Origin: Pyrinomonadaceae bacterium
GTDB lineage: Bacteria > Acidobacteriota > Blastocatellia > Pyrinomonadales > Pyrinomonadaceae
Length of the DNA: 41,684 nt
NCBI GenBank assembly: GCA_026785925.1
Contig: JAJAZE010000316.1
Location: 1 to 41,684, forward strand
Direction: 5' to 3'
Shown here: in pieces, positions 3,501 to 35,123 of the stretch
How the letters are laid out: every line of letters begins with the position of its first letter
Numbering within the stretch: the first letter of the stretch is position 1
The notes under the pieces: model-generated
What the model saw: only the letters and a program-made list of their open reading frames with translations
Told to the model about the DNA's origin: nothing
The model's database searches: none
Made by a program: the position numbers and the translations under genes

Positions 3501-4166
3501 CTACTTGGCTGCTTTTTTTTGGATCAGCAAACCGCGCATTTTTAATCGCGCTTTGTGCAGTTGGGATTTCGATGTGCCGACCGAGATTCCAAGAATCCGC
3601 GCCACTTCTTCGTGTTCGTAGCCCTGAACATCGTGCAGCACGAACGCGCTTCGATAACCGGGCGGCAACTGGTCAACCGCGCGTTTCAGAGCGATGCGGT
3701 CGAGAACCGGCATTTTCGCCTGATTTTCCGTTCCCGGAACGATTTGTTCGGGAATTTCGCCGTCTTCCGAAGTCTTTTCATTTTTCACGCTGCGCCGCCG
3801 AAAGTGCATCAAAACCTGGTTGACCGTCAAACGATGAAGCCAGGTGGAAAAAGCCGAATCGCCGCGAAAACTGCCGACTTTGCGAAAAAGCTGGATGAAA
3901 ACTTCCTGCGTCAAATCTTCCGATTCGGTCTGGCTGCTCGTCATTCGCAGGCAGAGCGAATAAGTCCGGCGATGATAACGCTCGTAAAGCATTTCAAAAG
4001 CGGCGATGTTTCCCAGAGCGGCAAGTTTCGCCAATTCAAAGTCCGCCGTTTTCGCGTCGAGCGGTTCGGTTTGCGCCGCCGGAGACAAAAGAAAAATCGG
4101 ATTGCCGGTGCTTTCCTCTACCTGTAAAACGCCGTCGCGCTCCATCGCAATCGAGGTCAAGTCCAT
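3501..4166 (-). CDS. ECF-type RNA polymerase sigma-70 family factor
   Basis: Region 2 ([36 protein letters not shown]) and region 4 HTH ([30 protein letters not shown]). Carries an N-terminal extension of about 45 aa. Confidence 0.9.
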
Positions 4167-8752: not shown

Positions 8753-8939
8753 GTGAAAAGTGATAAGTGAGAGGTGATAAGTGATAAGTAAAAAGCCGTC
8801 TGAGATAAATGTAAATGTTTATTTCAGACGGCTTTCTCACCTATCACTTATCACTTATCACTTATCACTTATCACTTATCACTTATCACTTATCACTTAT
8901 CACTTATCACTTATCACTTATCACTTATCACTTCCCACT
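8752..8939. repeat. Inverted heptamer tandem arrays flanking a terminator hairpin
   Basis: Left arm GGTGAAA AGTGATA AGTGAGA GGTGATA AGTGATA (8752-8786). Right arm TCTCACC, then 13 perfect TATCACT (8842-8932), then TCCCACT. TATCACT is the reverse complement of AGTGATA. The array touches the stop codons of both convergent genes. Confidence 0.95.
8792..8835. terminator. Bidirectional intrinsic terminator between convergent genes
   Basis: AAAGCCGTCTGA (8792-8803) pairs with TCAGACGGCTTT (8824-8835). The stem is extended by ATAAA/TTTAT, with a T-run on the minus-strand side and TTT on the plus side. Confidence 0.7.
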
Positions 8940-10894: not shown

Positions 10895-10980
10895 AAGTGA
10901 GAAGTGAGAAGTGAGAAATGAGAAATAGAACAGTTTTTCACTTCTCACTTCTCACTTCTCACTTCTCACTTCTCACTTTT
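10895..10980. repeat. Inverted heptamer tandem arrays forming a long hairpin
   Basis: AGTGAGA x3 (10896-10916), then AATGAGA and AATAGAA; a short loop; then TTTCACT and TCTCACT x5 (10943-10977). It starts 1 nt after the stop codon of the sigma-like gene. Confidence 0.95.
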
Positions 10981-21213: not shown

Positions 21214-22689
21214 TTAGACAACTTTCAGCTTCCACTTTCCGCGTCTGAAAAGAAACGCCGAAACGATTGCCAGCACCGAAAATGCCACGGTTATCGCCCA
21301 GAAAACGCCGTCCGGTCCAAGTCCGAAATGATACGCCAGCAAGTAGGCGAGCGGAATCTCGAACATCCAGAAAATAAAAAGATTCAAATAAGTCGGTGTC
21401 CAAGTGTCGCCCGCGCCGTTAAATGACGATTCCAAAACCATCCCGAAAGCGTAGAACACGAAACCGTAGGCGACGATGTGCAAACAGTTTGTGCCGTAAG
21501 CTAAAACTTCCGCTTCGTCGGTGAAAAATCCGACGATTCGATTTGAGAAAAATAAAAATATCAAACTGACCGCGCCGAGAACCGCCGCATTGACGAACGC
21601 CGCTTTCCACACTGACGCTTCGGCGCGTTCCGGTTTGCCCGCGCCCAGGTTTTGCCCGACGAGCGTTGCCGCCGCGTTGCTCAAACCAATCGCCGGCAGC
21701 AGCGCGAACATAATCACGCGCAGACCAATGACGTAACCGGCAATCGCTCCGCTGCCGAATCCGGCGACGACGCGAACTAACGCGCTCCAACTTGCCGTCG
21801 CAATCGTGAACTGCAAAACGGCGGGCGCGGCGATTTTAACCAAACTCGACATAATTTCCGAATCATACCGCCAATACTCTTTGCGAATCGTGATGCGCCC
21901 GCCCGGACGAAACAGCCAATATGCCGCGAACAGAACGCCGACCCCGCGCCCGATGGTCGTGCCGATTGCCGCGCCGGTCACGCCGAGTTTCGGAAAAATC
22001 CAATTATCAATCAACCACTGCGGCGCGCCGATTCCCAAAAAAGCGAAAATATCCGCGCCCATAATAAAACACGGCGCGAGAACGATGTTCAAAAGATTTG
22101 CCAGAAACAAAACGCGCATCGCAATCGCCGCGTCGCCCGCGCCGCGAAAAATCGCGTTCAGCAGAAACAGAAAAACGATGACCGCGTTGCCGCCGAGCAT
22201 AATCCTGGTGAACGTCGTGCCTTCAGCGATCACCTGCGGTTCCGCGCCGAGCAGCCGCAGAAAAACGGGCGCGAAAACGATGCCGACGACGCTCATCACC
22301 AGCGAAACAATCACACCCAAATAGATGGCGTGTGCCGCCGTTCGCGCCGCGCCTTCCTGGTCTTTTTCGCCGGTTCGTCGGGCGACTGTTGCCGTCGCGC
22401 CGATGCTCAAACCGATGGCGACGGCGTAGACAATCGCCAGCATTGATTCGGTCAAACCGACAATCGCCACCGAATCCGCGCCCAGATGCCCGACGAAATA
22501 AATGTCTACGATGGCGAAAACGCTCTCCATAAACATTTCCAAAATCATCGGAACGCTCAATAAAAAAATCGCTAAACCGATTGAGCCGGTCGTAAAGTCG
22601 CGCTCGGAACCGGCGACGGCTTCGCGCAGAATTGACCAGAAAGAATTATTCTCCGTCTGCCCGGCAGAATTATCCGTATTTATAGACAT
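21214..22689 (-). CDS. MATE family efflux transporter
   Basis: 491 aa and 12 TM helices. The N-terminal SIGLAIFLLSVPMILEMFMESVFAIVDIYFVGHLG is typical of NorM/DinF-type MATE proteins. Confidence 0.9.
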   Translation of the reverse strand: MSINTDNSAGQTENNSFWSILREAVAGSERDFTTGSIGLAIFLLSVPMILEMFMESVFAIVDIYFVGHLGADSVAIVGLTESMLAIVYAVAIGLSIGATATVARRTGEKDQEGAARTAAHAIYLGVIVSLVMSVVGIVFAPVFLRLLGAEPQVIAEGTTFTRIMLGGNAVIVFLFLLNAIFRGAGDAAIAMRVLFLANLLNIVLAPCFIMGADIFAFLGIGAPQWLIDNWIFPKLGVTGAAIGTTIGRGVGVLFAAYWLFRPGGRITIRKEYWRYDSEIMSSLVKIAAPAVLQFTIATASWSALVRVVAGFGSGAIAGYVIGLRVIMFALLPAIGLSNAAATLVGQNLGAGKPERAEASVWKAAFVNAAVLGAVSLIFLFFSNRIVGFFTDEAEVLAYGTNCLHIVAYGFVFYAFGMVLESSFNGAGDTWTPTYLNLFIFWMFEIPLAYLLAYHFGLGPDGVFWAITVAFSVLAIVSAFLFRRGKWKLKVV

Positions 22690-22972
22690 AAAAATTTATT
22701 ATTTTATAGAGAAAGTGAAACCAAAGACGGAGTTGCGCGACCTCTCTTAACAAGGACGAAACAAATGTTGAAAGCGACGGCTGTCTTAACGGATGCAGGT
22801 AAGGATTTTCATAATGTTTGGGAGTTTTGCACAATCGAAAAAAATGTAAAATGCGTCGGACGTAAATAATTTGAAACAGTTTTAGGAAAAAATTGCTTGA
22901 AACTTGTTTGCGAAAATATGCGTGTAACGGTCTTAAAACCATTGGTCACAGAGAGTTGTAAGTTCACGCAAA

Positions 22973-23000
22973 GCGCGTTCCGAAACCTTTCAGAACGCGC
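22973..23000 (-). terminator. Possible clpA terminator hairpin
   Basis: GCGCGTTC (22973-22980) / GAACGCGC (22993-23000), an 8-bp stem 20 nt past the clpA stop. Only a short T-run (TTTG) follows on the minus strand. Confidence 0.4.
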
Positions 23001-23019
23001 CCAAATTTTTCATCGCAAA

Positions 23020-25278
23020 TCAAAATTCCAAAACCAACTCGTCGTCTTTGACAGTAACTGCAACGCTGCCGCCGTCGGAGAGTTTGCCAAAAAGGATTTC
23101 GTGCGCGAGCGGCTGTTTGATTTTATCGTGAATCAGCCGCGCCATCGGACGTGCGCCGTATTTGCCGTCGAAGCCGTTTTTCGCCAGCCATTCTTTCGCC
23201 AAATCGTCAAGTATAATTAACACGCGCTTTTCGGCGAGCTGCCCGTTTAACTCCTTGATAAATTTATCAACGATTGACGTGATATTTGCCAAATCAAGAG
23301 CTTTGAACGGAACCCAAGCGTCGAGCCGATTGCGAAATTCGGGCGAGAATGTGCGTTCAATCGCGCCTTTCGCTTGTCCTTTCGATTCGCTCTGATTGCG
23401 GAAACCGACACCGCCGCTCGACAACTCTCGTGCGCCCGCGTTGGTTGTCATAATCAAAATCACGTTGCGAAAATCGGCTTTTTTGCCGTTATTGTCGGTC
23501 AGAGTCGCCGAGTCCATCACCTGCAAAAGTAAATTGAAAAGATTCGGATGCGCCTTTTCGATTTCGTCTAAAACTAAAACGGCGTGCGGCGTTCGCATAA
23601 TCGCTTCGGTCAAAAGTCCGCCCTGATCGAATCCGACGTAGCCCGGCGGCGCACCGATTAAGCGCGAAACCGTGTGCGGTTCGGCGTATTCGCTCATATC
23701 GTAGCGCATAAATTCGATGCCGAGTTGTTCCGCCAACTGTTTCGATAATTCGGTTTTGCCGACTCCGGTCGGACCGGAAAACAGAAACGAGCCGACGGGT
23801 TTGGTTTGCACTCCGAGACCGGCGCGGGAAATTTGAATCGCGTCCACGACTTTATTGATCGCGTCGTCCTGTCCGAAAATGACGTTTTTCAAATCATCGC
23901 GCAGCGATTTCAAACGGTCTTTTTCATCGGCGACCACGCTTTTCGGCGGAATTTTCGCCATTCGCGCAATCGTGTTTTCGACCATTTGCACGGAAATCAT
24001 TTTCGGGCGTTTGTCTTCCGATAAAAGTTTCGTCGCCGCCCCGACTTCATCAATCACATCAATCGCTTTGTCGGGCAAATGCCGGTCGTTGATATATTTT
24101 CCGGCGAGTTCGGCGGCGACTTTCAAGGATTCGTCCGAGTATTTAACGCCGTGATGCGCTTCGTAAAACTTTTTCAAACCTTTAAGTATTTCGTAAGTTT
24201 CGTCAATCGTCGGCTCGCCGATTTCGATTTTCTGAAAACGTCTGGCTAAAGCGCGGTCGCGTTCAAACGCCGATTTATATTCGGCGTAAGTCGTCGAACC
24301 GATACAGCGCAAAGTGCCGTCGGCAAGCGCGGGTTTTAAGATGTTGGAGGCATCCATCGAACCGCCGGAAACCGCGCCCGCGCCGACGATGGTGTGAATC
24401 TCGTCAATAAAAAGAATCGCGTTCTCCTCTTTTTTGAGATCGGTGATAATCGCTTTGAACCGCTGTTCAACATCGCCGCGATAGCGAGTTCCGGCGAGAA
24501 CCGCGCCCATATCGAGAGCGAAAACCTTCGCGCCCTGCAAAACTTCCGGCACGTCGCCTTCGGAAATTTTCAACGCCAAACCTTCCGCCAACGCCGTTTT
24601 CCCAACGCCCGGTTCGCCGACATAAAGCGGATTGTTTTTCTTGCGCCGACAAAGCACCTGCACCGTTCTTTCGATTTCTTCCATTCGCCCGATGATCGGG
24701 TCAATCTCGCCGTTCGCCGCTTTCGCCACGAGTTCGACGGTGAACGATTCGAGCGGCTTTTTCCGCTTGCCGCCGTTGGCGCGTTCTTCGGCAAATTCCT
24801 CGTCTTCAATGCCTTCGCCGACACCTTCAAAGTTCTGCCCGCTCTCGACTTTAGAAATCCCGTGCGCGATGTAATTCAGCATATCGAGCCGTGAAACGCC
24901 CTGCTGTTTCAACAGATAAACGGCGTAAGATTGCTCGGCTTGATAAAGCGCGGCAAGGATATTCCCGCCGTCAACCGCCTTCTGTCCGCTGCCTTCCGCC
25001 TGCAACAGTGCGTATTGAATAGTGTTTTGAAAAGTCGCCGTCAACTCCGGCATCATCTGCACACCGTCGGGCGTTTTCTCCAAAACATCGCGGAAATAAT
25101 CGCCGAGCGAAGCACTAATTTCTTCAACTTTCGCCCCGCAATTAAATAAAATATCGCGGGCGGCGGCATCTTCGAGCAGCGCGAACAGCAGATGCTCCAA
25201 CGTCACGTATTCGTGTTTGTGTTTGACGGCTTCATCAACCGCGTAGCTTAATGTTTCTTCTAATTCTCTGGTTAACAT
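23020..25278 (-). CDS. clpA: ATP-dependent Clp protease ATP-binding subunit ClpA
   Basis: N-terminal Clp_N repeat and two AAA+ modules (GEPGVGKT and GPTGVGKT Walker A motifs). No middle coiled-coil of ClpB length. 752 aa. Confidence 0.95.
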
Positions 25279-25287
25279 ATTTCAAAA

Positions 25288-25755
25288 CTATTTACTTTTG
25301 ATGCAAACTAAGCCGTTTTTTTCCGGGTTAAAATTCTTAGGAAAGATTGTTTTATCATCGTAGCGAGTTGCGTCAAATTGCGCCCCGTCCAAATTTGCAT
25401 CGGTAAAATTTGTTCCGCTCACATCAGCCGAACCTCCAAGATTAGATTTTCCGAAGTTCGCGTTCTTCAAGTTTGCACCCGTAAAATCAACTTCCTTTAA
25501 ATTCGCTCCCTGAAATTTCGCTCCCTCACAATTTGTTTCGCTCAAATCAGACATAAAAAGAAATGCCCAATAAAAATCGGCTTCTCTGAGATTCGCCCGA
25601 TGCAAATTTACATCTTCCCACAAGATGCCCTGAAGATTCGCTTTCTCTAAATTTATGCCGGATAAAACTTGTTCTCTTAAAATCCATCTTTCATCGTGTT
25701 CGTCATAACTAAAAATAACTTCTTCGTTAATGTTTTTAATTTCTCTGATTTTCAT
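25288..25755 (-). CDS. Pentapeptide-repeat protein
   Basis: Consecutive A(D/N)LxX quintets (ANLQG ILWED VNLHR ANLRE ADFYW ... ANLKE VDFTG ANLKN ANFGK SNLGG). 155 aa, visibly AT-rich gene. Confidence 0.85.
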   Translation of the reverse strand: MKIREIKNINEEVIFSYDEHDERWILREQVLSGINLEKANLQGILWEDVNLHRANLREADFYWAFLFMSDLSETNCEGAKFQGANLKEVDFTGANLKNANFGKSNLGGSADVSGTNFTDANLDGAQFDATRYDDKTIFPKNFNPEKNGLVCIKSK

Positions 25756-25768
25756 TTCCAGCTTATTT

Positions 25769-26038
25769 CTAGTTTTTTGTAACTTCCTGATTCATCTTTT
25801 CCTGTAGCCAAAGATTAAGCAATGTTTCCGCCGACACGCCGCGCCGTTCGGCAATCGTGTGAAGTTTCGACGAAAGCGAAGTTTCCACCGCGTAATAAAA
25901 AACGTCGGACTGTAAATCAACTGCAAACTCAACTTCTTCGGTTTTCTCCCAAATTTCATCGGCATCGTGCAAATCCCAATACTCGCCGATTTCCTTGTAT
26001 GATTTTGCTTCTGAAATTGAACTTTTATTTTCTTGCAT
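25769..26038 (-). CDS. brnA: BrnA/CopG-like type II antitoxin
   Basis: 89 aa. EIGEYWDLHDADEIWEKTEEVEF, followed by a C-terminal ribbon-helix-helix-like segment (LSSKLHTIAERRGVSAETLLNLWLQEK). Overlaps the upstream DUF497 gene by 14 nt. Confidence 0.65.
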   Translation of the reverse strand: MQENKSSISEAKSYKEIGEYWDLHDADEIWEKTEEVEFAVDLQSDVFYYAVETSLSSKLHTIAERRGVSAETLLNLWLQEKMNQEVTKN

Positions 26039-26309
26039 ATCGTTTTCTCTCCGCGCCGGTCATATCTCGCGCCGACAAAATCAATGCGCGATGGTCTTCT
26101 TTATGAACAAAGTAACAAGCCAAATAGCGTCCGCCGTCGGTTTGACCGAATGCCGCATAAACATTTTCGTCTTTTCGATGCCCTTTTTCAATAAAACGAA
26201 AGCGCGGATTGTTGAGAAAAATTTCGCGGACTTCTCCGGTTTCGACCGAGTGCTTCCAAATTAGTTTCTGAACTATTTCCTCCAGCCAGACAAAACCCGT
26301 AATTTTCAT
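26025..26309 (-). CDS. brnT: BrnT-like (DUF497) ribonuclease toxin
   Basis: 94 aa. FVWLEEIVQKLIWKHSVETGEVREIF ... ALILSARDMTGAERKRYARK matches the DUF497 pattern (F-W-D...KHGV..EE..EVF ... IISAR.at..Er..Y). Its ATG directly abuts the clpS stop codon. Confidence 0.75.
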   Translation of the reverse strand: MKITGFVWLEEIVQKLIWKHSVETGEVREIFLNNPRFRFIEKGHRKDENVYAAFGQTDGGRYLACYFVHKEDHRALILSARDMTGAERKRYARK

Positions 26310-26627
26310 CTATTCTTCCTCGACCGTGCAAAGCAGCGGATATTCCTGTGCGCGGGCGAGGTTCATCGCTTTCTCGGCTTTCATATTGGCGATTTCAAAT
26401 GAATAAACGCCCGCGATGCCGATGCCTTCGTGATGGACTTTGAGCATAATCGCAAACGCTTCGTCGGCGGAACGCAGAAAAACGTGGTTTAGAACGAAAA
26501 CGACGAACTCCATCGTCGTAAAATCGTCGTTGTGCAAAACGGCTTTGTAAAGCGGCGGTTTTTCGAGGCGCGTTGCGCTTTCGGTCATCACCGCGCCGTC
26601 GTCTTCAAATTCGGGGAAATCCGGCAT
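26310..26627 (-). CDS. clpS: ATP-dependent Clp protease adaptor ClpS
   Basis: 105 aa. YKAVLHNDDFTTMEFVVFVL...AFAIMLKVHHEGIGIAGVYSFEIANMKA is the canonical ClpS core. Confidence 0.92.
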   Translation of the reverse strand: MPDFPEFEDDGAVMTESATRLEKPPLYKAVLHNDDFTTMEFVVFVLNHVFLRSADEAFAIMLKVHHEGIGIAGVYSFEIANMKAEKAMNLARAQEYPLLCTVEEE

Positions 26628-26673
26628 AATTTAATTTAACCACAGATGAATACACATTTACACGGACGACTTT

Positions 26674-26739
26674 AACAGGATGGACAGGATATTCAGGATG
26701 AAATCAAAAAATTATCCTGCTCATCCTGTCCATCCTGTT
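26674..26739. repeat. Inverted 9-nt tandem arrays forming a hairpin
   Basis: CAGGAT recurs at 26676, 26685 and 26694 (period 9). ATCCTG recurs at 26714, 26723 and 26732 (period 9). AACAGGATGGACAGGAT (26674-26690) is perfectly complementary to ATCCTGTCCATCCTGTT (26723-26739). It lies between the gdh-like stop and the clpS start. Confidence 0.85.
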
Positions 26740-26751
26740 AAAATTTTTCGA

Positions 26752-27870
26752 CTAGATTTTACTCACTTCAAAATACGCCTTGATCGCTTTGTATTTCCCG
26801 GCGTTATTGAGAATGTCGAAGGCTTCGGCGAAATTCTCCAAGCCGTTGACTTTATGTGTCATTATTTTTCCGAGCCAGCCCGCGAACGTCGCTTCGCATA
26901 ATGCTAAATCCTTCACGCCCATCTCAAAATGTTCGCGGTTGGCGTTGACCGTGCCGACCATCGCTCGATTTCCCAAAACGAACATTTGATTGATTTTGTC
27001 GGACGGCACAGCATCGGTTTTGCGCTCGCCGCCGGTCACGCTGGCTAAAATCAGAATGCCGTTTTCGTTTAAACTCTGCATCGCGTCAAAGACGATTGGC
27101 GAAAAACCCGTGCATTCAAAAACAAGATCGTATTCGCCGTATTTCTTCGTCGAATCGGCAACCGTGATTTCGGCAGTCGAATCGTAAGTCGCGCCGATTT
27201 CTTCGAGCAGTTCGGCGTTAAAATAACCGTCCCGCACGTCGCGCCCGAAGCCGTGAACTTCGCAGCCGCGCATTCGCAAAGCCATCGCCGTTAAAATTCC
27301 GACGCTCCCAACTCCTAAAACCGCCGCCGTTTTCGGCTGCCAGATGTCGAGGCGTTTTTGAATGTCTTCGGCTTGCTTCAAACCTTTTTCGATAATCGAA
27401 AGCGGTTCGAGCAGCACGGCGATCTCGGCAATCGCGGGCGGAATTTTGACAAGAAAATCTGCGCTTTCAACGTAAAATTCCGCCATATAACCGTGCAGCC
27501 GCGAGATGCCGCGTTCCCAATATTCCGCGTCGGTCGTAAAATCCTGCTGACCAATCGTGTCATAAATGCTGTGTCCGAATGGTCGCCGAACGGTCGCCAC
27601 GACGAAATCGCCCGCTTTCAGTTCTCTAAAATTTTCACCAACTTCGACGACGCGCCCGAAATTTTCGTGTCCGAGAATCAAAAAATCAAAACCGTCGGGC
27701 GCAACACCGTATTCGCCGTTGTTGATTTCCCGATCCGTGCCGCACGCGCCGACGCGCAGAACTTCGACTAAAACGCCGCGCCCGTCTTTGATTTCTTCGA
27801 TTTTCGGTTTGTCCGTCTCGACCAGATGAACGCTGTTCGGTTGTTTCGGTGTAACGGCGATTGCCTTCAT
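26752..27870 (-). CDS. Zinc-dependent MDR-family dehydrogenase, glucose 1-dehydrogenase-like
   Basis: VGACGTDRE, GHENFGRVVEVG, and Rossmann motif LGVGSVG. Overall resemblance to archaeal-type glucose dehydrogenases, judged from memory only. Confidence 0.75.
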   Translation of the reverse strand: MKAIAVTPKQPNSVHLVETDKPKIEEIKDGRGVLVEVLRVGACGTDREINNGEYGVAPDGFDFLILGHENFGRVVEVGENFRELKAGDFVVATVRRPFGHSIYDTIGQQDFTTDAEYWERGISRLHGYMAEFYVESADFLVKIPPAIAEIAVLLEPLSIIEKGLKQAEDIQKRLDIWQPKTAAVLGVGSVGILTAMALRMRGCEVHGFGRDVRDGYFNAELLEEIGATYDSTAEITVADSTKKYGEYDLVFECTGFSPIVFDAMQSLNENGILILASVTGGERKTDAVPSDKINQMFVLGNRAMVGTVNANREHFEMGVKDLALCEATFAGWLGKIMTHKVNGLENFAEAFDILNNAGKYKAIKAYFEVSKI

Positions 27871-28027
27871 AATTTTTTATTTACGCGAAAAAATAATTGC
27901 CAAATCCTCGTTTGGTTGCCACACTTGAATCATACTTTTAATTGTTAAATTTCAAAAATGAGACAACAGTTTTTTGAAGTATTCAGACGCTCCGGGAGCG
28001 GTTAAAAATTAAACAAGGGAGAAAAAA

Positions 28028-30190
28028 ATGGCAGCCAAAAAAGAAAATAACAGTAACGAAACGAACGCAAAAATCGAACAGTTAGCACAGCACACGACCG
28101 ACGGCGCAGACCAGCCGCTGACGACCAATCAGGGCTTGAAAATCAACGACAACCAGAATTCACTAAAAGCGGGGACGCGCGGTCCGACGCTTTTGGAAGA
28201 TTTTATAATGCGCGAGAAAATCACGCATTTCGACCACGAACGAATTCCCGAACGCATCGTTCACGCTCGCGGCGTGGCGGCGCACGGTTATTTTGAATTG
28301 ACCGAATCTTTGGAAAAATATACGAAAGCGAAATTTCTAACGCAGGTCGGCAAGAAAACGCCGGTCTTTACGCGCTTTTCGACGGTCGCCGGTTCGCGCG
28401 GCTCAAGCGATTTGGCGCGTGATGTGCGCGGTTTCGCGGTCAAATTTTATACCGAAGAAGGTAATTATGATTTAGTCGGAAACAACATTCCCGTCTTTTT
28501 TATTCAGGACGCGATAAAATTTCCCGATTTGATTCACTCGGTCAAACCCGAACCGCACAACGAAATTCCGCAGGCGGCTTCAGCGCACGATACATTTTGG
28601 GATTTTATCAGCTTGATGCCCGAATCAATGCATATGATTATGTGGGCGATGTCCGACCGCGCGATTCCGCGTTCTTTGCGAATGATGGAAGGTTTCGGCA
28701 TTCACACTTTTCGCCTGATAAATGACGAAGGCAAAGCGACGTTCGTCAAATTTCATTGGAAACCGCGACTCGGCGTGCATTCGGTGGCGTGGAACGAAGC
28801 GCAGAAAATCTCCGGTTTCGATGCCGATTTTCACCGCCGCGATTTGTGGGAAGCGATTGACGGCGGCGATTTCGCCGAATGGGATTTCGGCGTGCAGCTT
28901 GTCGCCGAAGCAGACGAACACAAATTCGATTTCGACTTGCTCGACGCGACGAAAATCATTCCCGAAGAACTCGTTCCCGTCAAAATCGTCGGCAAGATGG
29001 TTTTAAACCGCAATACCGATAATTATTTCGCGGAAACCGAACAAGTCGCTTTTCTGCCTTCAAACATCGTTCCGGGAATTGATTTTTCCAATGACCCTTT
29101 GCTTCAGGGCAGACTACATTCGTATCTCGACACGCAGATTTCTCGCTTGGGCGGACCGAATTTTCACGAAATTCCGATTAACCGCCCCGTTGCGCCGCTT
29201 CACAACAATCAACGTGATTCGGCATTTCGCCAGACAATCAATAAAGGGAAAGTCGCGTATGAGCCGAACACGCTCGGCGGCGGCTGTCCGTTTCAATCAA
29301 TGGCGCAGGACGGCGGTTTTACATCGTATCAGGAAAAGATTGACGGCAATAAAATCCGCGTTCGCAGCGACAGTTTCCGTGACCATTTCACGCAAGCCGC
29401 GTTGTTTTTTAACAGTCAAACCGAATACGAACAAACACATATTGTTGACGCTTTGAGTTTTGAACTCGGCAAACTCGAAGTCGGCGCGATTCGTGAAAGA
29501 GTCGTGTATATTTTGAATCAAATTGACGAAACGCTCGCTTCAAAAGTCGCCGACAATCTCGGCATCGAAATTCCCGCGAAACTCGATTTGCCGATGAATA
29601 TGAGTTTTCCGGCGGACGCGAACCCGGACGATTATCAGCCGATTCCGAAAAAGGACGCGAAAGTCAAAAAATCCGCCGCGCTTTCGATGGCGAACACCGT
29701 TAAAGATACGATAAAAACCCGTCAAATTGCGTTTCTGGTTGCCGACGGTTTTGATGCCGACGATGTGAAAACGATGAAAAACGCTCTCGAAAATCAAGGC
29801 GCGAAGGCGAAAATTATCGGTTTGAAATCGAAATCGGTCAAGGACGCGAGCGGCAATGAAATGAAGGTTGACCACGCGCTTCGCACGGTTGCCTCGGTTT
29901 TATTCGACGCGGTTTATATTCCGGGCGGCGAGCAAAGCATCGCGGCTTTGAGCGAAGAAGCCGACGCGATTGAATTCGTCAACGAAGCGTTTCGCCATTG
30001 CAAAGCGATTGCCGCTTCAGGCGCGGGCGTGAACTTCTTAAAGGAAGAAACTTACGTTCGTAAGGCAGCCAACGATAAAGCCGTCATTTTAAACGAAAAC
30101 GGCGCAAAAGACGCGGCGCAGAATTTTATCAAAGCCATCGCCGAACATCGCAACTGGGACCGAGAAAAAGCCCGCAAGGTTCCGGCTTAA
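28028..30190 (+). CDS. katE: Large-subunit catalase (HPII type)
   Basis: FDHERIPERIVHARG, VRFSTV-like RFSTVAGSRGS, and the proximal-Tyr region GRLHSYLDTQ. 720 aa with a C-terminal flavodoxin/DJ-1-like domain. Confidence 0.95.
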   Translation: MAAKKENNSNETNAKIEQLAQHTTDGADQPLTTNQGLKINDNQNSLKAGTRGPTLLEDFIMREKITHFDHERIPERIVHARGVAAHGYFELTESLEKYTKAKFLTQVGKKTPVFTRFSTVAGSRGSSDLARDVRGFAVKFYTEEGNYDLVGNNIPVFFIQDAIKFPDLIHSVKPEPHNEIPQAASAHDTFWDFISLMPESMHMIMWAMSDRAIPRSLRMMEGFGIHTFRLINDEGKATFVKFHWKPRLGVHSVAWNEAQKISGFDADFHRRDLWEAIDGGDFAEWDFGVQLVAEADEHKFDFDLLDATKIIPEELVPVKIVGKMVLNRNTDNYFAETEQVAFLPSNIVPGIDFSNDPLLQGRLHSYLDTQISRLGGPNFHEIPINRPVAPLHNNQRDSAFRQTINKGKVAYEPNTLGGGCPFQSMAQDGGFTSYQEKIDGNKIRVRSDSFRDHFTQAALFFNSQTEYEQTHIVDALSFELGKLEVGAIRERVVYILNQIDETLASKVADNLGIEIPAKLDLPMNMSFPADANPDDYQPIPKKDAKVKKSAALSMANTVKDTIKTRQIAFLVADGFDADDVKTMKNALENQGAKAKIIGLKSKSVKDASGNEMKVDHALRTVASVLFDAVYIPGGEQSIAALSEEADAIEFVNEAFRHCKAIAASGAGVNFLKEETYVRKAANDKAVILNENGAKDAAQNFIKAIAEHRNWDREKARKVPA

Positions 30191-33551: not shown

Positions 33552-35123
33552 ATGTCATTAGAAACGGATTTTATCGTGATCGGTAGCGGAGTCGCCGGGC
33601 TGCGCGCTTCGATTGAACTGGCGAAAAGCGGTGCGCGGGTTTCGGTCTTAACCAAAGATAAGGCGCAGGAGTCGAACACCGAATACGCGCAGGGCGGCGT
33701 GGCGGTCGTTCTCTCGGATGATGACAATGCCGAACTACACGAAGAAGACACGCTTTACGCGGGCGCGGGTTTGTGCGATGTCGAAGCAGTCGAAACGCTG
33801 GTCGCCGACGGCACGAAATATATCAAACAACTGATCGAATGGGGAATCGAATTTGACCGCGAAGGCGGCAAACTCGCCTTCACGCAGGAAGCGGCGCATT
33901 CGCGGCGGCGAATTCTGCACGCGCACGGCGATTCGACCGGCAAGGAAATCGTCCGCGCTTTGATTGCCCGCGCCCGCCAGGAAAAAAACATCGTTTTGAT
34001 GCCGTTTGCCAATACCGAAAGTTTGATTGTAAATGACGGCAGATGCGTCGGTGTAAGATTTTTAGACCCGATTCTTCGTGCGCCGCGTGAGATTTTCGCT
34101 AAGGCGGTAATTTTATGCACGGGCGGCGCGGGGCAATTATTTCTGCACACGACGAATCCGCCGGTGGCGACGGGCGACGGAATGGCAATGGCGTATTTCG
34201 CGGGCGCGGAAATGGCGGATATGGAATTTATCCAATTTCATCCGACGGCATTAAATTTGGAAAACGCGCCCAGATTTCTATTAAGCGAGGCGATGCGAGG
34301 CGAAGGCGGAATTTTGCGGAACGCGCAGGGCGAACGGTTTATGTCGCGCTATGACGATTTGCTCGAACTCGCGCCGCGTGATGTCGTCAGCCGTTCGATT
34401 GTTGCCGAAATGCGCCGGACGGGAACGCGCACGGTTTTCTTGGATATGACCGCGCACGACGAAAAGTTTCTTAAAGAACGATTTCCGAAAATTTATGAGA
34501 CGTGCAAATTTTACGATTTAAACGTCGCTAAAGATTTGCTGCCCGTCTCGCCCGCGTCGCATTATTGTATGGGCGGCGTTCGGACGGATTTGCACGGCAG
34601 AACGACTCTCAAAGGACTTTATGCGGCGGGCGAAGTCGCCTGCACGGGCGTTCACGGCGCGAATCGTCTGGCTTCAAATTCTTTATTAGAAGGCTTGGTT
34701 TTCGGTGCGCGGTCGGGCGAAGCCGCGATAAAAGACAATTACGAATTACGAATTACAAATTACGAATCGCCACCCGAAGACCAAAGACCGAAGACCAAAA
34801 ACCAATCTTCCGAAATTTCGACGGCGGTGAAAAAGCGCGTCAAGCGTGTGATGTGGGAGCGCGTCGGGATTTTGCGCGATAGAGATTCTTTACAAAGAGC
34901 GTTAAAAGAATTCGCGCAAATCGAACAGTCGAATCTCGGCACGTCGTCGCGCAATTTCGTCACGCTCGCCAAACTCGTCGCAGCCTCGGCGTTATGGCGC
35001 GAGGAATCACGCGGCGGACATTTCCGCAACGATTTTCCCGAACGTGACGACGTTAATTTTGACAAACATTCGATTCAAAAAATCGATGCGGAAATCTCTT
35101 CGAGCGAGAAAATAAACTTTTAA
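33552..35123 (+). CDS. nadB: L-aspartate oxidase
   Basis: FAD motif VIGSGVAGL, plus QGGVA, HPTAL, RGEGG, GEVACTGVHGANRLASNSLLEGLVFG, ESRGGHFR. Confidence 0.93.
   Translation: MSLETDFIVIGSGVAGLRASIELAKSGARVSVLTKDKAQESNTEYAQGGVAVVLSDDDNAELHEEDTLYAGAGLCDVEAVETLVADGTKYIKQLIEWGIEFDREGGKLAFTQEAAHSRRRILHAHGDSTGKEIVRALIARARQEKNIVLMPFANTESLIVNDGRCVGVRFLDPILRAPREIFAKAVILCTGGAGQLFLHTTNPPVATGDGMAMAYFAGAEMADMEFIQFHPTALNLENAPRFLLSEAMRGEGGILRNAQGERFMSRYDDLLELAPRDVVSRSIVAEMRRTGTRTVFLDMTAHDEKFLKERFPKIYETCKFYDLNVAKDLLPVSPASHYCMGGVRTDLHGRTTLKGLYAAGEVACTGVHGANRLASNSLLEGLVFGARSGEAAIKDNYELRITNYESPPEDQRPKTKNQSSEISTAVKKRVKRVMWERVGILRDRDSLQRALKEFAQIEQSNLGTSSRNFVTLAKLVAASALWREESRGGHFRNDFPERDDVNFDKHSIQKIDAEISSSEKINF
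34738..34807 (+). repeat. Two abutting heptamer tandem arrays inside the nadB reading frame
   Basis: AATTACG AATTACG AATTACA AATTACG AATCGCC ACCCGAA GACCAAA GACCGAA GACCAAA AACCAAT. Translated in frame as NYELRITNYESPPEDQRPKTKNQ. Confidence 0.85.

Follow-up and report, generated by a model that had tools for sequence, protein, structure and literature searches.

The 41,684-nucleotide (nt) stretch of Pyrinomonadaceae DNA analysed here (the window; contig JAJAZE010000316.1 of assembly GCA_026785925.1, Acidobacteriota) carries a BrnT/BrnA-like toxin-antitoxin (TA) pair, hereafter BrnTA, and a small pentapeptide-repeat protein (PRP) between clpS and clpA, the genes for the adaptor and the unfoldase of the ClpAP protease. 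The five genes are listed below in their order on the minus strand, together with the hairpins that bracket them and a remnant of the spacer between clpS and clpA.

26656..26757, minus strand: long hairpin of short tandem repeats in the spacer between an ADH-like gene and clpS, likely the upstream transcription-unit boundary
26310..26627, minus strand: clpS, N-degron adaptor of ClpAP, 105 amino acids (aa), PF02617 (100 bits)
26025..26309, minus strand: brnT, predicted DUF497/BrnT ribonuclease toxin, 94 aa, PF04365
25769..26038, minus strand: brnA-like antitoxin gene (brnA in the following), 89 aa, putative C-terminal ribbon-helix-helix (RHH), PF12441 below threshold
25288..25755, minus strand: PRP, small cytoplasmic pentapeptide-repeat protein, 155 aa, PF00805
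25279..25310, minus strand: ancestral clpS-clpA spacer remnant with the motif TTTGCATCAAA...TTTTGAAAT, within which the PRP reading frame ends
23020..25278, minus strand: clpA, AAA+ unfoldase of ClpAP, 752 aa, TIGR02639
22971..23002, minus strand: terminator-like hairpin, likely the downstream transcription-unit boundary

The initial annotation had described five minus-strand genes with almost no spacing, and its coordinates and junctions were all confirmed. The clpS stop codon TAG (26312-26310) directly abuts the brnT start codon ATG (26309-26307; gap of 0 nt), brnT and brnA overlap by 14 nt, and gaps of 13 nt and 9 nt separate brnA from the PRP gene and the latter from clpA. RNA folding revealed no terminator-like hairpins at any of the four gene junctions, as had been claimed; the single-transcription-unit anatomy holds, with strong hairpins bracketing the block. 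The hairpin upstream of clpS (inverted-repeat arms 26656-26699 and 26714-26757) folds with -34.4 kcal/mol (z=-6.2), while that following clpA lies 18 nt beyond the stop codon and combines a perfect 14-bp stem (-23.2 kcal/mol, z=-3.3) with a trailing CUUUG, with none of 200 shuffled sequences folding equally well. This arrangement is consistent with the co-transcription of all five genes. On the basis of profile matches both ClpS and ClpA are bona fide; ClpA scores 1063 bits against TIGR02639 (cut-off 993) and the full set of Clp_N, AAA, AAA_lid_9, AAA_2 and ClpB_D2-small domains was detected by profile search, and orthologues of ClpS sharing 61-91% identity occur in ~90 Pyrinomonadaceae and Blastocatellia contigs.

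BrnT matches PF04365 with 36.0 bits (gathering score 34.5) across profile positions 6-77 of 77, and its homologues are labelled as BrnT family toxin by NCBI and as DUF497 family protein by JGI. Foldseek comparison of its AlphaFold model (pLDDT 90.8) against the PDB yielded only two matches with E <=1e-3, namely 7vd7_A, a Salmonella toxin-antitoxin complex (TM 0.85), and 3u97, the Brucella BrnT (TM 0.64/0.76), and the protein is thus predicted to adopt the BECR/RelE-like fold of the solved BrnT structures. Single-sequence phmmer searches of BrnT and BrnA against the PDB sequences returned nothing meaningful. Twenty homologues share K19, H20 and E87 without exception, and F31 is conserved in at least 90% of them. 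The spacing of these residues matches that of K17, H18, F29 and E86, shown to be essential for the RNase activity of the BrnT homologue Aave_1720 (PMC10714953). In the present analysis the two sets were equated by position and motif, not by structural superposition; a direct alignment to a canonical BrnT covered the C-terminal motif with E87 alone. BrnT is a predicted ribonuclease toxin that its partner would neutralise.

The partner protein, BrnA, scores below threshold against both PF12441 (CopG_antitoxin; 22 bits, cut-off 28, E=2.8e-4, profile positions 4-79 of 79) and the NCBIfam model BrnA_antitoxin_add (16.8, cut-off 60). Many of its homologues at 67-85% identity carry precomputed PF12441 matches, and several bear the name BrnA or CopG family antitoxin in their source records; homology is thus likely despite the sub-threshold score of the window protein itself. 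The monomer was modelled with low confidence (pLDDT 52) and shows helices at residues 58-66 and 70-88, and the most conserved stretch comprises residues 44-80. In almost every related locus with sufficient sequence, the gene for a BrnT relative is immediately followed by one for a BrnA relative, and the distances of the two proteins are correlated (Mantel r = 0.69). BrnTA is probably a genuine type II toxin-antitoxin pair.

The insert of ~1.0 kb, which comprises brnT (43.9% G+C), brnA (41.9%) and the PRP gene (37.6%), has an overall G+C content of 40.6%, against 51.9% for clpS, 51.5% for clpA and 49.1% for the window as a whole, and only 1.6% of segments of equal size (1022 nt) are as low. It is therefore compositionally foreign, and the horizontal-looking composition noted initially is borne out. 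The earlier estimates of 39-41% for the insert and ~50% for clpS hold, while that of ~58% for clpA does not; the gene has 51.5% overall, and local 200-nt segments within it reach 57%. This composition favours a recent, genome-specific insertion of the three genes as a single 1-kb cassette. That explanation is refuted by the occurrence of the arrangement in many species, by a synonymous divergence (dS) of brnTA equal to or above that of its flanks and by the separate occurrence of the TA pair and the PRP, and it is regarded as extremely improbable.

Related loci (designated by L numbers) were collected in a genome scan with ClpS as query, followed by tblastn and inspection of open reading frames (ORFs), which gave 80 species-level loci, all from Pyrinomonadaceae, Blastocatellia or other Acidobacteriota. 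A further set (L085, L086, L090, L092, L094 and L097-L101) came from exact-protein look-ups and a metagenome scan. The initial premise that clpS and clpA are normally adjacent is true for some species, but in over half of the 80 closest ClpS loci the 6 kb downstream contain no clpA. In L007, L011, L015, L017 and others of L005-L084, clpS stands without a nearby clpA and is often followed by genes on the opposite strand, also in loci that retain the synteny of the upstream ADH-like gene. The adjacency of clpS and clpA is thus itself unstable in the Pyrinomonadaceae. Where the two genes are adjacent, twenty species have nothing but an ORF-free spacer of ~15-105 nt, and ~10 species carry cargo. 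The empty slots include that of L006, which is among the closest relatives of the window locus (89% identity in ClpS and 88% in ClpA).

BrnTA lies directly upstream of clpA in at least sixteen contigs, and these copies form a single monophyletic clade. The order clpS-brnT-brnA-(0 or 1 gene)-clpA is found in eight loci (L005, L009, L025, L085, L086, L090, L092 and L094), the clpS-brnT junction is visible before the contig ends in four more (L013, L097, L100 and L101), and in L098 and L099 a pair encoding a DUF5678 protein and an aspartyl protease precedes brnTA in the slot. Furthermore, L096 and L126 show the order thrB-brnT-brnA-clpA and lack clpS within 4 kb, and brnTA likewise follows thrB in L103, the contig of which ends before clpA could appear. 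With the exception of L098 and L099, brnT starts 0-4 nt past the clpS stop codon in nearly all clpS-linked loci. In a neighbour-joining tree of BrnT relatives every clpS/clpA-linked copy falls in one clade, and none of the 24 relatives outside it (55-71% identity, with enough flank on both sides) has a clp neighbour; in L087 and L088, both outside the clade, brnT is situated in ordinary TA-rich neighbourhoods. Conserved linkage had been set as a test beforehand, and BrnTA was found upstream of clpA across many species and not in one genome only. The three inserted genes do not travel as one cassette, with BrnTA occurring without the PRP in L086, L092 and L094, and the PRP without BrnTA in L178/L179. 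Additional TA pairs were observed on the far side of clpA in two of these loci. In L092 (6892-7489) a second, canonical BrnT (PF04365, 85 bits) and a CopG-like partner overlap the clpA stop codon by 4 nt, such that this clpA has a BrnTA pair on each side, and in L094 (6484-7152) a UPF0175/DUF3368 pair follows ~180 nt after clpA.

The selection acting on the genes was compared across nine species with the full arrangement, with the following mean ratios of non-synonymous to synonymous divergence (dN/dS) and median dS values.

brnT: mean dN/dS 0.084, median dS 1.26
brnA: mean dN/dS 0.165, median dS 1.14
clpS: mean dN/dS 0.154, median dS 0.93
clpA: mean dN/dS 0.112, median dS 0.87

At dS values above 1, brnT is more constrained than either clpS or clpA, and the toxin is kept intact by strong purifying selection. 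BrnT distances follow ClpA distances (Mantel r = 0.83, p=1e-4) as well as ClpS distances do (r = 0.75 for ClpA versus ClpS). The co-divergence of BrnT and ClpA and the high dS thus identify BrnTA as an old resident and not a recent arrival, and the horizontal acquisition suggested initially is not supported as a recent event.

The attachment of brnT to the preceding gene is tight, with a median upstream gap of 0 nt in fifteen clp-linked copies versus 92 nt in others (p=9e-5). Promoter-like matches occur at chance level (6 found, 4.9 expected), and a promoter inside the clpS coding sequence is possible. In TA-bearing loci the synonymous sites of the final twelve clpS codons show slightly higher conservation (0.24 versus ~0.31 upstream), a weak signal. 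The same BrnT family also docks behind the gene for the dihydrolipoamide acyltransferase (E2) in L104, L105, L111 and L118, behind a selA-like gene (L119), behind rho (L154) and behind thrB (L096, L126 and L103), and the copies docked at the E2, selA-like and rho genes overlap the end of the host gene by 1-4 nt or begin at most 16 nt past it. Since these housekeeping genes are unrelated, operon docking looks like a habit of the element and not like a Clp-specific coupling. The loss of its own promoter and the docking in host operons thus appear to be characteristics of the element itself, and a generic docking habit accounts for much of the anatomy of the locus. In L104 a 65-nt direct repeat of the E2 3' end (2820-2887 and 3640-3705, 92% identical) flanks brnT-brnA and ~270 nt of further sequence. 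This repeat is the footprint of an insertion into the 3' end of the E2 gene, with the reading frame restored.

On balance it is considered probable that a promoter-less BrnTA rides on the clpSA unit, is inherited with clpA and is kept for its TA function within a slot that accepts several kinds of cargo. BrnTA would have entered the position upstream of clpA in the ancestor of a sub-clade and then co-diverged with clpA, with repeated loss or replacement, while the RNase toxin would have been kept intact by selection. The pair would be transcribed, and probably translationally coupled, from the host operon. As long as the operon is expressed, a labile BrnA would be replenished and BrnT neutralised. 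A collapse of operon transcription or translation, as in phage takeover or severe stress, would leave BrnA to be proteolysed by Lon or ClpAP, whereupon BrnT would cleave RNA and bring about growth arrest or abortive infection. This proposed activation route is the generic one of such modules, and the data require no specific mechanistic dependence on ClpS or ClpA.

The second module of the insert, the PRP, matches PF00805 with 86 bits (cut-off 20.2) and also exceeds the cut-offs of PF13599 and PF13576. Its best NCBIfam match is Alr5209 (78 bits), and it falls far below the cut-offs of this family (78/125) as well as those of Qnr (31.9/240), QnrA (38/450) and MfpA (20.6/360). It thus shares pentapeptide repeats and PF00805 with the DNA mimics Qnr and MfpA and with the cyanobacterial Alr5209, but differs from them in its smaller size (155 aa), its own conserved C-terminal tail (TIFPxNFNPEKNGL) and its fixed position beside clpA. 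The closest homologues (50-84% identity, 155-173 aa) are encoded immediately before clpA in 5/5 visible contexts, two of them without the TA pair, and the contexts are as follows.

L085: clpS-brnTA-PRP-clpA
L178 and L179: clpS-PRP-clpA, TA absent
P0246 contig: 216-aa gene, PRP, clpA
L180: clpS, 224-aa gene, PRP, clpA; TA absent

The PRP is under purifying selection (dN/dS ~0.10). Its reading frame ends inside the ancestral spacer motif, which also precedes the clpA ATG in L006, L012, L014 and L021, where the spacers are empty and 43-67 nt long. The strain-level contig L003 is 95-100% identical to the window at the nucleotide level in clpS, brnT and brnA, but only 63-80% in the PRP gene (L003:610-1077 versus window 25288-25755; dS=1.48), and identity returns to 100% at the start of clpA; the PRP allele has been replaced through homologous recombination. 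BrnTA and the PRP are two independent modules, and the third slot position is held by unrelated genes in other species. The position of the PRP directly before clpA, with or without the TA pair, suggests co-expression with ClpA and, possibly, an action of the PRP on or through it.

The same neighbourhoods bear on the idea, put forward initially, of a switch coupled to ClpAPS. According to this explanation ClpAP or ClpAPS has BrnA, or BrnT, as a dedicated substrate, and the placement of the pair between adaptor and unfoldase fixes how much antitoxin is made relative to the protease capacity. The RNase would be released when operon output or the activity of ClpS/ClpA changes, and the PRP would modulate ClpA, or serve as a decoy or substrate. 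This explanation accords with the fact that, wherever the context is visible, the BrnTA clade directly precedes clpA, also in L096 and L126, where thrB takes the place of clpS, with the purifying selection on the toxin over saturating synonymous divergence and with the independent placement of an unrelated PRP family before clpA in all five contexts, down to 50% identity. The second canonical BrnT pair, which overlaps the clpA stop codon in L092, and the degradation of the antitoxin ParD by ClpAP (PMC6191456) point in the same direction. Sister lineages, however, dock in a like manner behind the E2 acyltransferase, selA-like and rho genes, the slot is empty in close relatives such as L006 with its 88% ClpA identity, and elsewhere it holds unrelated cargo encoding secreted, SWIM, SEC-C and NucS-like proteins. 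Inspection revealed no apparent N-degron or ssrA-like tag in BrnA or the PRP. In PADLOC-DB 2.0, BrnT and the PRP have no match and BrnA has a weak partial AbiEii match (15.8 bits), with no defence-system model being matched, and full-text searches of the library used returned no paper describing a TA pair between clpS and clpA, nor a PRP linked to clpA. A mention of 'pentapeptide' in a Clp review refers to GUN1 and is irrelevant. The ClpAPS-coupled switch is thus thought unlikely. A functional tie to ClpA is a minority hypothesis, kept alive by the retention of BrnTA beside clpA in the thrB-linked loci and by the adjacency of the PRP to clpA.

The space upstream of clpA is a variable cargo slot. 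Clustering of all slot proteins distinguished BrnT/BrnA, a DUF5678 protein with a retropepsin-like aspartyl protease, a secreted protein and the PRP as families, and a TPR protein, a SWIM protein, a SEC-C protein and a weak NucS-like protein as singletons. All slot cargo is low in G+C. Wherever at least two modules co-occur their order is constant, namely clpS, DUF5678/aspartyl protease, BrnTA, secreted protein, PRP or other gene, and clpA.

Two of the slot families have not featured above as modules in their own right. The DUF5678 (~114 aa) and retropepsin-like aspartyl protease (~135 aa, with a DTG motif) genes are tightly spaced or overlap, forming a cassette of which the protease scores 22.6 bits against PF13650, just under the cut-off of 24.3. 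Its occurrences are as follows.

L008:6331-7858: two tandem copies
L020:971-1719: one cassette
L030:6299-7044: protease gene broken
L098:14-707 and L099:177-920: ahead of brnTA

The cassette may represent a TA-like or defence pair that is as yet undescribed. It has no match in PADLOC, and the sole full-text match for DUF5678 was an unrelated plant-pathogen study. The secreted family (~220-250 aa) has a signal peptide and no Pfam match, and its partners vary between BrnTA, the DUF5678/aspartyl-protease pair and the PRP. Its members are located as follows.

L025:1081-1842: secreted slot protein
L030:7056-7727: secreted slot protein
L180:3312-3986: secreted slot protein
L019:5828-6277: shorter secreted slot protein (149 aa)

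Such variety could also reflect a purely selfish hot-spot, in which a permissive and recombination-prone clpS-clpA spacer accumulates modules that are exchanged through the conserved flanks, and BrnTA persists by addiction with no benefit to the host or to Clp function. Of the species in which clpS and clpA are adjacent, about one third have cargo, of at least six unrelated families, all of it low in G+C and differing between sister species; the PRP allele swap has sharp recombination boundaries, a second two-gene cassette (DUF5678 and aspartyl-protease-like) occupies the slot, once in tandem, and direct repeats flank the E2-docked copy in L104. Addiction alone, however, does not keep a toxin intact, and the dN/dS of brnT (0.084) lies below that of clpS and clpA, while BrnT distances co-vary with those of ClpA. 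The gene annotation of the window shows no mobile-element genes near the locus, with no integrase, transposase or flanking repeats at the insert, and neither target-site duplications nor a duplicated clpS 3' end were found around the insert in the window and seven related loci. Phage records contain no relative, and plasmid relatives are at most 38.5% identical. Furthermore, the conserved module order points to differential loss and not to repeated random insertion. An explanation by selfish persistence alone is accordingly held to be doubtful.

Several observations weigh against the favoured account of a pair that rides in the operon and is inherited with clpA. The persistently low G+C content and low third-position G+C (GC3) of the insert (0.37-0.44 versus ~0.6) fit simple vertical descent poorly, with dS approaching saturation, and could instead reflect repeated re-import, with recombination taking place in the conserved flanks clpS and clpA. 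Slot content differs between close sister species (L005 versus L006, L009 versus L019); turnover is therefore fast, and numerous independent losses must be assumed. The assignment of BrnA depends on a sub-threshold profile match and on its homologues, and its structure model is poor; co-transcription, the toxicity of BrnT and the lability of BrnA are predictions. BrnTA also stays beside clpA after a change of its upstream neighbour, and the adjacency of the PRP to clpA is independent of it, which hints at more than passive hitch-hiking.

The wider surroundings of the operon are those of an ordinary chromosomal region, with neighbouring genes for catalase, menaquinone biosynthesis, a MATE transporter and a heparinase-like protein. 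Tandem repeats of ~7 nt in inverted blocks, for example (GTGATAA)n / (TCACTTA)n, form intergenic hairpins in the window, not only upstream of clpS but also at 8753-8933, 10895-10978 and 34737-34805. The spacers between the ADH-like gene and clpS in L085, L090, L092, L014, L021, L011 and L030 each contain a hairpin of wholly different repeat sequence, and the structure is thus conserved while the sequence turns over. These tandem-repeat hairpins are probably terminators or insulators and may represent a family-wide element. The upstream inverted repeat was considered as a BrnA operator and rejected, as orthologous spacers hold such hairpins with or without brnTA and their sequence is species-specific. 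An Rfam scan of positions 22000-28200 returned sub-threshold microRNA-precursor look-alikes on the upstream hairpin and nothing else. Past the hairpin, 10-20 nt before the clpS ATG, lies the motif CTGTGG(C/T)(A/T)AAAT (window 26630-26650), which is conserved at orthologous positions in L005, L006, L012, L025, L092 and L094 and may be the -10 region of a promoter with a very short leader.

The BrnTA kind is already known, and what is new here is a variant of TA organisation, with BrnTA between clpS and clpA, together with the PRP-clpA neighbourhood. The brnTA of Brucella, as summarised in two reports (PMC11980606, PMC10714953), is an autoregulated bicistron with its own promoter. The window pair resembles it in gene order, with the toxin first and the antitoxin overlapping, in PF04365, in a predicted fold like that of 3u97 and in a putative CopG/RHH-like C-terminal half of the antitoxin, and the conserved Lys-His, Phe and Glu of the window BrnT correspond by position and motif to RNase-relevant residues. 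It differs in that the window BrnT is only 19-22% identical to the solved BrnT structures, and in that the pair lies mid-operon, lacks a promoter or operator region and shows vertical stability across species. In the ParDE system of RK2 the antitoxin ParD is degraded by ClpAP (PMC6191456), which sets a precedent for a link that may exist between BrnA and ClpAP. Unlike the window pair, RK2 ParDE is plasmid-borne, has its own promoter and has no genetic linkage to clpA.

The clpS-clpA slot shares several features with the defence hot-spots found between core genes, including conserved flanks, interchangeable low-G+C cargo, TA-like pairs, nuclease-like, SEC-C and SWIM genes, differing sister species and allele exchange by recombination. 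In contrast to these, it is situated within an operon, with few nt between genes and all cargo on the operon strand, holds at most ~2.4 kb and has no integrase or att sites. TA systems tied to stress or proteostasis genes include E. coli relA-mazEF, the toxin-antitoxin-chaperone (TAC) systems with a SecB-like chaperone and Caulobacter SocAB with ClpXP, and the likeness lies in the physical or functional coupling of a TA pair to such a gene. None of these is known to be situated between a protease adaptor and its unfoldase. A mechanistic dependence has been demonstrated for TAC and SocAB, which sets them apart from the window BrnTA; TAC systems are also mentioned in PMC11980606.

It is conceivable, though unlikely, that the BrnTA lineage and the unrelated PRP have both been recruited as accessories of ClpA, with BrnA, the PRP or both as dedicated substrates or modulators of ClpAP(S), in which case the operon would be a self-contained, protease-timed RNase switch in stress or phage defence. 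In that event the PRP would give the pentapeptide-repeat proteins their first member involved in regulated proteolysis.

According to the usual view, chromosomal type II TA modules are autonomous, regulate themselves and are short-lived. The BrnTA lineage described here appears to have lost its own promoter, is docked at a housekeeping gene's stop codon and encodes an RNase that is more constrained than the host genes around it. It thus offers a clean natural case in which to ask what selection keeps a chromosomal toxin alive, and whether the coupling of its expression to a protease operon matters. For the pentapeptide-repeat proteins, a family in which hardly any functions are known, the position of the PRP directly before clpA offers a new lead that can be tested. 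Should neither module be tied to Clp, the locus would still be a compact example of an intra-operon cargo slot.

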